The notes beneath the pieces were generated by a model. The model had not been told where the DNA came from. It did not search any database and saw nothing but the letters and a program-made list of their open reading frames with translations. Shown here one piece after another: positions 7,463-8,452 of a stretch of 64,000 nucleotides of DNA. Numbering within the stretch: the stretch's first letter is position 1; each line of letters opens with the position of its first letter. Location of the stretch: the NCBI RefSeq assembly GCF_054482595.1, contig NZ_CM137008.1; one strand, written 5' to 3'. The translations under genes were made by a program, and so were the position numbers.

Positions 7463-7760
7463 GATATGGGGTTTGGTCGTTGTTAATGAGCACGACAATC
7501 ATGACCGCCAACGACTGGATTCTTCCTTGGTTTATACTGGTGCGCATAATGTATATTATGTTAAATCATGTCTGAGTGATGCGAAGTGCTTTTCTGGTAG
7601 TCGTTATTCGTTCAGGGTTCAAGAACTTAAGCCTCTCCTCTTTCATAATTGGCCTGTGCATGGAGAAATAGCCTGGTTATTCCCTGCCCCATGCTAAGAG
7701 CGCAGTGTCTGTCGCATAGACACTGCATACGAAAACACCAGAGGGTGCTGTTACTTATTT

Positions 7761-8100
7761 AAGGACGGAGCTCCGCCGTTGGCTTCAATATCAAGCTGAA
7801 TGATTGTGATACCAATGTTTCCAGTAATGCAGCTGTTGCATTCCTGGGTACTACTGTCACCAGTAATGACGATACGTTAGCGCTGCAGAGTTCAGCGGCA
7901 GGCTCTGCCCAAAATGTCGGTATTCAAATTTTGGACCGTACGGGTGAGGTATTAATACTTGATGGGGCCACTTTTAGTGCTAAAACCGACTTGATTGATG
8001 GCACGAATATACTGCCATTCCAGGCTCGTTATATTGCTCTCGGGCAGTCCGTAGCTGGTACTGCAAACGCTGATGCGACCTTCAAAGTTCAATATCTATA
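7761..8100 (+). pseudogene. 5-prime-truncated major pilin of the type-1/F9 family (FimA-like C-terminal approx 113 codons, no start codon)
   Basis: In-frame translation [30 protein letters not shown]...[12 protein letters not shown] matches the C-terminal two thirds of FimA-type pilins; in-frame TAA directly upstream (approx 7758-7760) and no signal peptide. Confidence 0.7.
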
Positions 8101-8140
8101 ATTCAATCTTAAGGTGGCTATACGTCATCTGAAATTGAAA

Positions 8141-8175
8141 CAGGGTGTGTGTGGCATGGCTACGCACACCCGAGC
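8141..8175 (+). terminator. Hairpin after the pilin fragment (GGGTGTGTGTGG ... CACACACCC), typical intra-operon attenuator of chaperone-usher operons
   Basis: Near-perfect inverted repeat read from sequence. Confidence 0.4.
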
Positions 8176-8452
8176 GATTTACCAATATTCATCTCATTTT
8201 TAATGAGAAATGGTTTGTATTTGGAGCGCTATGAAAAATCACATAATATCTAAACTATCAATAAACAACAGTAGTTAAACTTACTGTTATTTAAAATATT
8301 TACTTTGTAGCAAGGTTTTCCTATTAAAAGAGAACCAACATTTATTACAAACGCATTAAGTCTGGAAACCCGGCGACTCGCCAATGTATTAGCAACATTA
8401 ATCGATTGTCTGATGTAACGGTTTTCCCGCTTATCCTCTTAACACATGGAGA

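Follow-up and report, generated by a model that had tools for sequence, protein, structure and literature searches.

A deletion scar at the start of the F9 fimbrial operon in an Escherichia coli chromosome

Introduction

F9 fimbriae serve Escherichia coli in biofilm formation at low temperature and in the binding of Gal-beta-1-3-GlcNAc and plant xyloglucan. The intact F9 operon (Fml, c1931-c1936 or ydeQRST), as carried by CFT073, O157:H7 and RM10042, lies between hipBA and ydeP. In CFT073, rapid amplification of cDNA 5' ends (5' RACE) placed the f9 transcription start at a G located 251 nt upstream of the ATG of the major-subunit gene, behind a promoter with a -35 element TAGTCG, an 18-bp spacer and a -10 element CATAAT, and the 251-bp promoter fragment was bound by H-NS (Wurpel 2014, PMC3966885). 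The same work found f9 disrupted in 17 of 42 genomes (~40%), all phylogroup A strains among them, and described the region immediately 5' of the operon as variable and affected by insertions and deletions of various kinds (Wurpel 2014, PMC3966885).

Here we analyse the start of the F9 operon in a 64,000-nucleotide stretch of E. coli chromosome (contig NZ_CM137008.1 of RefSeq assembly GCF_054482595.1; hereafter the window). The original prediction, made from the letters alone, held that the fimbrial locus begins with a FimA-like pilin gene that lost its 5' part, together with the promoter and any switch or regulators, through a deletion next to hipA, and that an usher gene split by the insertion sequence (IS) IS2 follows while the chaperone and tip adhesin genes are still intact. 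It proposed that comparison with intact operons would place the breakpoint and that microhomology be looked for at the junction. We find that the scar is very probably the product of a single illegitimate deletion with minimal microhomology in the F9 operon.

Results

An 878-bp segment is missing between hipA and the pilin gene

The features on either side of the scar are the following (window coordinates).

6140-7462, plus strand: hipA, intact; upstream neighbour of the scar
7463-7769, plus strand: spacer downstream of hipA, conserved; left flank of the deletion
7702-7726, plus strand: perfect hairpin with a 9-bp stem in the spacer, without a U tract; unrelated to the junction
7760-7762, plus strand: stop codon TAA, closing the pilin frame 7 nt ahead of the junction
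7769-7770: deletion junction, placed by comparison with RM10042
7769-8101, plus strand: 3' remnant of the F9 major pilin gene (codons 78-187 and stop), a pseudogene

Breakpoints were sought by a megablast comparison of window positions 7300-8600 with 5,426 complete E. coli genomes. Both flanks were matched in thousands of them, and the best matches hold about 880 extra bases between the flanks. E. coli O43 RM10042 (locus L001, whose coordinates are used below for the intact operon) served as the reference for mapping.

Window 7199-7769: L001 8900-9470, 100% identity
Window 7769-8721: L001 10348-11300, 100% identity

Absent from the window is L001 9471-10348, a segment of 878 bp, and the comparison with intact operons thus places the breakpoint between positions 7769 and 7770. 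The predicted deletion is borne out by this alignment, its adjacency to hipA is not: the left breakpoint lies 307 bp downstream of the stop codon of an intact hipA, and the right side joins pilin codon 78.

The junction sequence reads CTTATTTAAGGACGGAGCTCCGCCGTTGG (also written ...TTAAGGACGGAGCTCCGCC...). The A at 7769 can be assigned to either side, which amounts to 1 nt of microhomology; the shared sequence is 3 nt (AGC) if the ancestor had the G variant at L001 9471 that is carried by EC21 and 13 other genomes. No direct repeats were found at or flanking the breakpoints, and the junction contains no IS DNA but joins two unique chromosomal sequences. With 1 nt (or 3 nt) shared and no long repeats at the ends, it has the form expected of an illegitimate deletion. 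A single event of this kind, with little or no end homology and recent in the lineage of the strain, would have joined the spacer downstream of hipA to pilin codon 78. Slipped mispairing on the 7-nt sequence AAGCGGG, present near both ends, is excluded since AAGCGGG was not retained. The joined sequence creates a 10-bp palindrome, CGGAGCTCCG (7765-7774); as a meaningful structure we reject it, for it is only a 4-bp inverted match of the flanks and folds no better than shuffled sequence (z 0.06).

An IS-mediated adjacent deletion, by IS2 or another element at the junction, comes to mind at a locus where IS2 sits in the same operon, where the usher region is an IS2 hot spot, and where IS1 and IS3-family elements occupy the pilin region in other strains. 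It is nevertheless very unlikely: such a deletion would leave an IS sequence at the junction, yet no IS end abuts it, and the only IS2 is 2.2 kb off with both copies of its 5-bp duplication intact. We likewise consider it very improbable that the 878 bp are present in the strain and were collapsed out of the assembly. While the junction occurs in no other genome or metagenome contig, and so is without independent confirmation, neither the breakpoints nor their surroundings hold repeats able to cause a collapse, the junction is exact to the single base and its flanks are those of a relative without a difference, and at least 10 comparable, real deletions are found at this locus in finished genomes. 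The deletion itself is contradicted by no evidence.

Polarity and age of the allele

At least 80% of the 878-bp segment is present in 2,577 of the 5,426 genomes, and its part comprising the promoter and the pilin 5' end is also found in CFT073-type genomes. As the segment is so widely present, the polarity of the change is that of a deletion in the window lineage. The converse proposition, that the short state is ancestral, or that the pilin gene was truncated or replaced when the hipBA island was acquired, while others gained the 878 bp, has next to no probability. It draws on the mosaic nature of the region 5' of f9, already called variable (Wurpel 2014, PMC3966885). The last 108 bp of the left flank (7662-7769, the hairpin included) belong to a lineage-specific 112-bp segment (L001 9363-9474); in B2, D10 and STLIN_13-type loci the same flanks enclose an unrelated sequence of ~110-125 bp instead. 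The right-hand junction of this old mosaic (L001 9474/9475) is 4 bp from the new breakpoint. However, the 878 bp hold the beginning of a gene that has its end in the window, the same hipBA-bearing and 100%-identical haplotype, RM10042, has the full segment, and the segment is present across phylogroups whereas the short allele occurs in 0 of 5,426 genomes.

A deletion in the window lineage would also be young. There are 0 substitutions relative to RM10042 across 7199-8721. A junction-centred 52-mer had exact matches in 0 of the 5,426 complete genomes (only 28-nt matches to the left flank were seen), and exact scans with a 33-mer found the junction in none of 100,044 GTDB species representatives and in none of 241 million JGI metagenome contig records. 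Because the flanks carry no substitutions and the junction is absent from the collections searched, the allele appears to be recent and, as far as visible, private. An exact look-up of the 56-aa open reading frame (ORF) contained in the remnant returned 8 contigs; the six places examined from these (L009-L014) were other alleles, with a 764-bp deletion or IS1/IS3-family insertions, or lay on a short contig.

The deleted segment held the f9 promoter and no sign of a switch

Three elements of the intact locus are affected.

L001 9475-9683: remnant of a yneL-like pseudogene, C-terminal part of an AraC-family regulator; deleted in the window
L001 9684-10116: 433-bp region between the AraC remnant and the pilin start codon; deleted in the window
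L001 10117-10680: major-subunit gene, 564 nt; its first 231 nt (codons 1-77) deleted in the window

A consensus scan of L001 found TAGTCA, an 18-bp spacer and CATAAT at 9830-9859. This promoter puts the start of transcription at 9866. The distance from there to the ATG at 10117 is exactly 251 nt, and the site lies inside the deleted interval. Since the mapped promoter of the intact locus falls within the deleted interval, the window has lost its native promoter along with codons 1-77, as had been supposed, and transcription of the operon would be lost with it. The whole regulatory region has gone, the fragment bound by H-NS included. Window 7300-8600 yielded a single weak match resembling a promoter, less than shuffled sequence yields, and nothing there was called as a terminator.

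The supposed loss of a switch or regulators fared less well. An AraC-type sequence was indeed lost, although it was already a fragment. A fim-type invertible switch (fimS with FimB/FimE) is unsupported: the intact locus has no fimS-like inverted repeats in L001 9400-10400, where the sole perfect inverted repeats are the 9-nt hairpin of the spacer and, at the promoter, an 11-nt repeat whose arms are 14 nt apart, and no fimB/fimE-type recombinase gene is annotated in the intact loci examined. Published work likewise gives no evidence tying these regulators to f9 (Wurpel 2014, PMC3966885).

The repeat at the promoter is an observation in its own right. In intact strains this 11-nt perfect inverted repeat, TAAATAACATG ... 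CATGTTATTTA (L001 9843-9853 and 9868-9878, 14 nt apart), brackets the f9 -10 element and the transcription start, and the window has lost it. This repeat could be an operator-like site.

The pilin remnant

The frame that starts at 7703 is closed by the TAA at 7760-7762, then runs through pilin residues to ...ATFKVQYL and ends at a TAA at 8099-8101. Both ends had been seen from the letters to within a few bases (stops at approx 7758-7760 and at 8100). The remnant is identical at 110 of 110 positions to residues 78-187 of the 187-aa major-subunit precursor of intact strains, so that the truncation was recognised correctly while its place, thought to be near residue 85 of 180, is residue 78 of 187. 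That only the C-terminal part of a FimA-family pilin is left is also seen in the domain searches. The 111-residue translation matches Pfam PF00419 (Fimbrial; E 1.2e-20) only at model positions 40-150 of 151, and the NCBIfam FimA profile NF011741 only at positions 74-184 of 185; at 106.5 bits it fails the curated equivalog cut-off of the latter (140 bits), which the intact RM10042 protein passes with 174.2 bits.

There is no start codon or signal peptide in frame ahead of the pilin sequence, as had been noted. An intact beginning further upstream is excluded by the TAA at 7760-7762, and the first in-frame ATG, GTG or TTG past it is the TTG at 7931, which lies 162 nt inside the remnant. The intact F9 pilin can be aligned over its full length with FimA of solved structure (2JTY, 6Y7S, 5NKT; E 7.5e-68 for 2JTY), the donor-strand segment included, and, as said, passes the FimA equivalog cut-off; it differs from FimA in being a paralogue encoded at another locus, and the window holds only the part that matches FimA from about mature residue 49 onwards. 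The deleted residues 1-77 include the signal-peptide region MKLKHVGMIVVSVLAMSSAAVSA and the donor-strand segment TTVNGGVIHFKGEVVNA, the equivalent of which is re-used in 2JTY as the self-complementing strand. Cys50 is deleted as well, and its partner Cys90 (NDCD) is retained, leaving one of two cysteines. A pilin of this family depends on its N-terminal donor strand and first cysteine to fold with the help of the chaperone and to take part in donor-strand exchange. With part of a Fimbrial domain but neither a proper start and export signal, nor an N-terminal donor strand, nor the cysteine pair, the remnant should, on chaperone-usher family biology, be unable to be exported, folded on the chaperone or polymerised, and because of these losses we regard it as non-functional.

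The remnant might instead be a short gene that still works, either translated from TTG 7931 into 56 aa or as a fusion comparable to the 160-aa 'fimbrial protein' of E. coli B. Gene callers do annotate the 56-aa ORF in other truncated alleles, and REL606 has the annotated 160-aa fusion ORF. In the window, however, the TAA shuts the frame 7 nt short of the junction, and no start codon occurs until the TTG 162 nt in; what could be made would have neither signal peptide nor donor strand and one of two cysteines, and the native promoter is gone. We judge a functional short gene extremely unlikely, and suggest that annotators label 7769-8101 a pilin pseudogene.

The rest of the operon is orphaned and its usher gene split by IS2

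Upstream of hipA and downstream of the remnant the locus contains the following.

5874-6140: hipB, intact
8143-8171, plus strand: native intercistronic stem-loop between the major-subunit and chaperone genes, 13-bp stem, retained
8462-9172, plus strand: F9 periplasmic chaperone gene, intact, without the operon promoter
9214-9960, plus strand: F9 usher gene, 5' part, as far as the IS2 insertion
9961-11291, plus strand: IS2, 1331 bp, flanked by a 5-bp target duplication
11292-13201, plus strand: 3' part of the F9 usher gene
13215-15235, plus strand: ydeS (13215-13745), ydeR (13758-14261) and the ydeQ adhesin gene (14321-15235), intact ORFs

The ORF map runs autotransporter, hipB, hipA, deletion scar, chaperone, IS-split usher, ydeS, ydeR, ydeQ, ydeP; both the site between hipBA and ydeP and the order pilin-chaperone-usher-ydeS-ydeR-ydeQ are those of the F9 (yde/Fml) operon, and the window is collinear with RM10042 at 98.7-100% nucleotide identity. 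HipA agrees with that of RM10042 at 439 of 440 residues and has no internal stops, in keeping with the annotation of homologous loci.

The IS2 in the usher gene, also called from the letters, lies between two copies of GGCAG (9956-9960 and 11292-11296). Because this 5-bp duplication is intact on both sides and uninterrupted RM10042 has a single GGCAG, the element is a simple insertion, with no adjacent deletion and unconnected to the deletion 2.2 kb upstream. The usher gene is thus not uninterrupted as in an intact F9 operon; once IS2 and one duplicate copy are taken out, it reads through 883 codons without a stop, 876 of them identical to RM10042. The chaperone is identical to the WP_001195166-type chaperone of RM10042 (236/236), and YdeS (174/176), YdeR (166/167) and YdeQ (302/304) are nearly so, with no internal stops. 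Chaperone, both minor subunits and the adhesin YdeQ are therefore intact in sequence, as had been read for the chaperone and tip adhesin, but orphaned; any transcription of these genes would come only from weak read-through from hipBA or from IS2. With the pilin deletion and, separately, IS2 in the usher gene, the strain is predicted to be unable to assemble F9 fimbriae.

Three points limit this account of the locus. The junction comes from an assembly, with a very small chance of an assembly error. Its microhomology is 1 nt, or 3 nt (AGC), depending on the true ancestor. Finally, some expression of the chaperone and ydeSRQ may persist, through transcripts that run on from hipBA or leave IS2 at its end.

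Other f9 alleles and a possible hot spot of loss

The window deletion has many counterparts. Even with shallow sampling we found at least 11 independent deletions with different junctions, that of the window included, within ~1.7 kb; the K-12 deletion alone reaches beyond this region, into the usher gene. In L001 coordinates the deleted intervals are as follows.

Window: 9471-10348
REL606/BL21/C: 9649-10311
EC21: about 9624-10030
K-12: 9939-13217
GCA_054596615: 9703-10466
O103 ML775: 9648-11000
RM13322: 10222-10876
W224N: 10313-11078
FORC_028: about 9628-10550
EC130: 9507-10922, plus a second deletion and an IS2 of its own
BS90R-A: about 9933-10360

In further strains IS1 or IS3-family elements occupy the pilin gene or the sequence upstream of it. 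Between alleles, several breakpoints fall almost at the same position (9647/9648, 9623-27/9627, 9932/9938 and 10312/10312): 4 such pairs were observed, against a rough expectation of 1-2 for 22 breakpoints in 1.7 kb, so that a clustering of breakpoints at the locus is suggestive only.

IS2 shows a similar preference. At least 4 IS2 insertion sites lie within ~55 bp of the usher gene, and one site is common to three divergent backgrounds (coordinates: window 9930-9965; L003 8715/10048; L007 and L008 6026; L019 4484-5815). In PA45B and D10 both the insertion point, to the base, and the orientation of the element are as in the window, with flanks ~3% divergent from those of the window and IS2 copies ~4% divergent (54-58 positions). 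EC21 has a reversed IS2 23 bp upstream of the site in the window, with the duplication CAATT, and EC130 another reversed IS2 ~30 bp downstream of it. The shared site was tried as a means to find the closest relative and to order the two lesions of the window; PA45B and D10 are too divergent for either purpose.

Such clustering would fit recurrent selection against F9 expression or locally fragile DNA, e.g. H-NS-bound curved DNA. The proximity of the new breakpoint to the old mosaic junction, the breakpoint clusters and the IS2 sites speak for a local hot spot or for selection favouring loss, without establishing either. That the region from the f9 promoter to the start of the chaperone gene is a hot spot of parallel gene loss, as opposed to one of slow neutral decay, we hold to be doubtful on these data.

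The spacer, its hairpins and neighbouring lesions

The stretch 7463-7755, in which no pilin similarity had been seen, belongs to the conserved spacer downstream of hipA (7463-7769), which likewise has none and is 100% identical to RM10042 in a comparison over L001 8900-9470. The perfect hairpin that had been placed at approx 7702-7726 occupies exactly these positions: its arms are GCAGTGTCT (7702-7710) and AGACACTGC (7718-7726), separated by a 7-nt loop. As RNA it folds at -17.7 kcal/mol (z -3.3), and it is unchanged in K-12, REL606 and RM10042. We rejected it as a terminator, in that it has no U tract and was not called in the terminator scan, and as a known RNA, there being no Rfam match; a search of 7000-9000 against Rfam gave as its sole match a chance, sub-threshold AdoCbl-II on the minus strand. 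The hairpin is an ordinary part of the conserved spacer with no role in the junction.

The second hairpin (8143-8171) begins 42 nt past the pilin stop and has no adjacent U tract; the region 8100-8200 folds at -36 kcal/mol (z -5.1). It is identical in intact loci and looks like the stem-loops found between cistrons behind the major-subunit genes of other chaperone-usher operons.

Three further observations concern the surroundings. The lineage-specific 112-bp segment of the spacer is essentially single-copy in E. coli. In STLIN_13 (L005 5776-6263) hipBA is missing while the last ~60 bp of hipA and the spacer are kept beside a truncated autotransporter gene; since the hipA tail persists there without hipBA, hipBA itself has been deleted in some lineages. 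In the window, the autotransporter gene upstream of hipB (ECSE_1600 family; window 244-5665) has a 1-bp G insertion near 4287, which splits a gene that is intact in RM10042 (5,421 nt) into ORFs 244-4308 and 4337-5665. This frameshift is the third private lesion within 15 kb.

Discussion

Two independent lesions would make this strain F9-negative, and it should lack the biofilm and binding traits that F9 confers. In itself the finding matters little. The wider pattern is of modest evolutionary interest, as many independent deletions and IS2 insertions across E. coli affect the same operon; their density at the locus is the only angle here that is mildly novel. The locus could serve as a natural system in which to weigh loss of a fimbrial operon by selection against local mutational fragility.

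The window allele is best placed by comparison with those already known. In comparison with the intact F9 operon at the same site, it is without the promoter and 5' untranslated region, pilin codons 1-77 and the AraC-type remnant, and its usher gene has IS2. The classical disrupted f9, yneL'-ydeT' of K-12 MG1655, is likewise an operon-destroying deletion in the same interval downstream of hipA, and the left spacer with its hairpin is common to both. The K-12 deletion, found in roughly a quarter of genomes (estimated from an evenly spaced sample of the ranking), removes ~3.3 kb: it keeps the yneL remnant and the mapped promoter and loses the whole pilin gene, the chaperone gene and the 5' part of the usher gene, whereas the window deletion takes 878 bp, with the promoter lost and the chaperone and usher sequence kept. 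In K-12 the retained f9 promoter and start (equivalent to L001 9830-9938; locus L004) are fused 72 nt downstream to the ydeT usher fragment, and ydeT, ydeS, ydeR and ydeQ may there still be driven by the H-NS-repressed f9 promoter.

Closer in kind is the allele of E. coli B (REL606/BL21) and C, in which a deletion has likewise taken the promoter and pilin codons 1-65, the 5' end of that gene, and the left flank is the same. Its breakpoints differ, its remnant is fused to an upstream ORF, and its chaperone and usher genes have further lesions; it occurs in roughly 100 genomes, the window allele in none. For the fusion in REL606 (L002 9145-9627), RefSeq lists an intact 'fimbrial protein' of 160 aa (WP_000931227.1); this entry is probably an artefact that arose when a pseudogene was annotated. 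Set beside these systems, the window carries a new allele, ordinary in itself, of the well-documented, recurrent pseudogenisation of f9.

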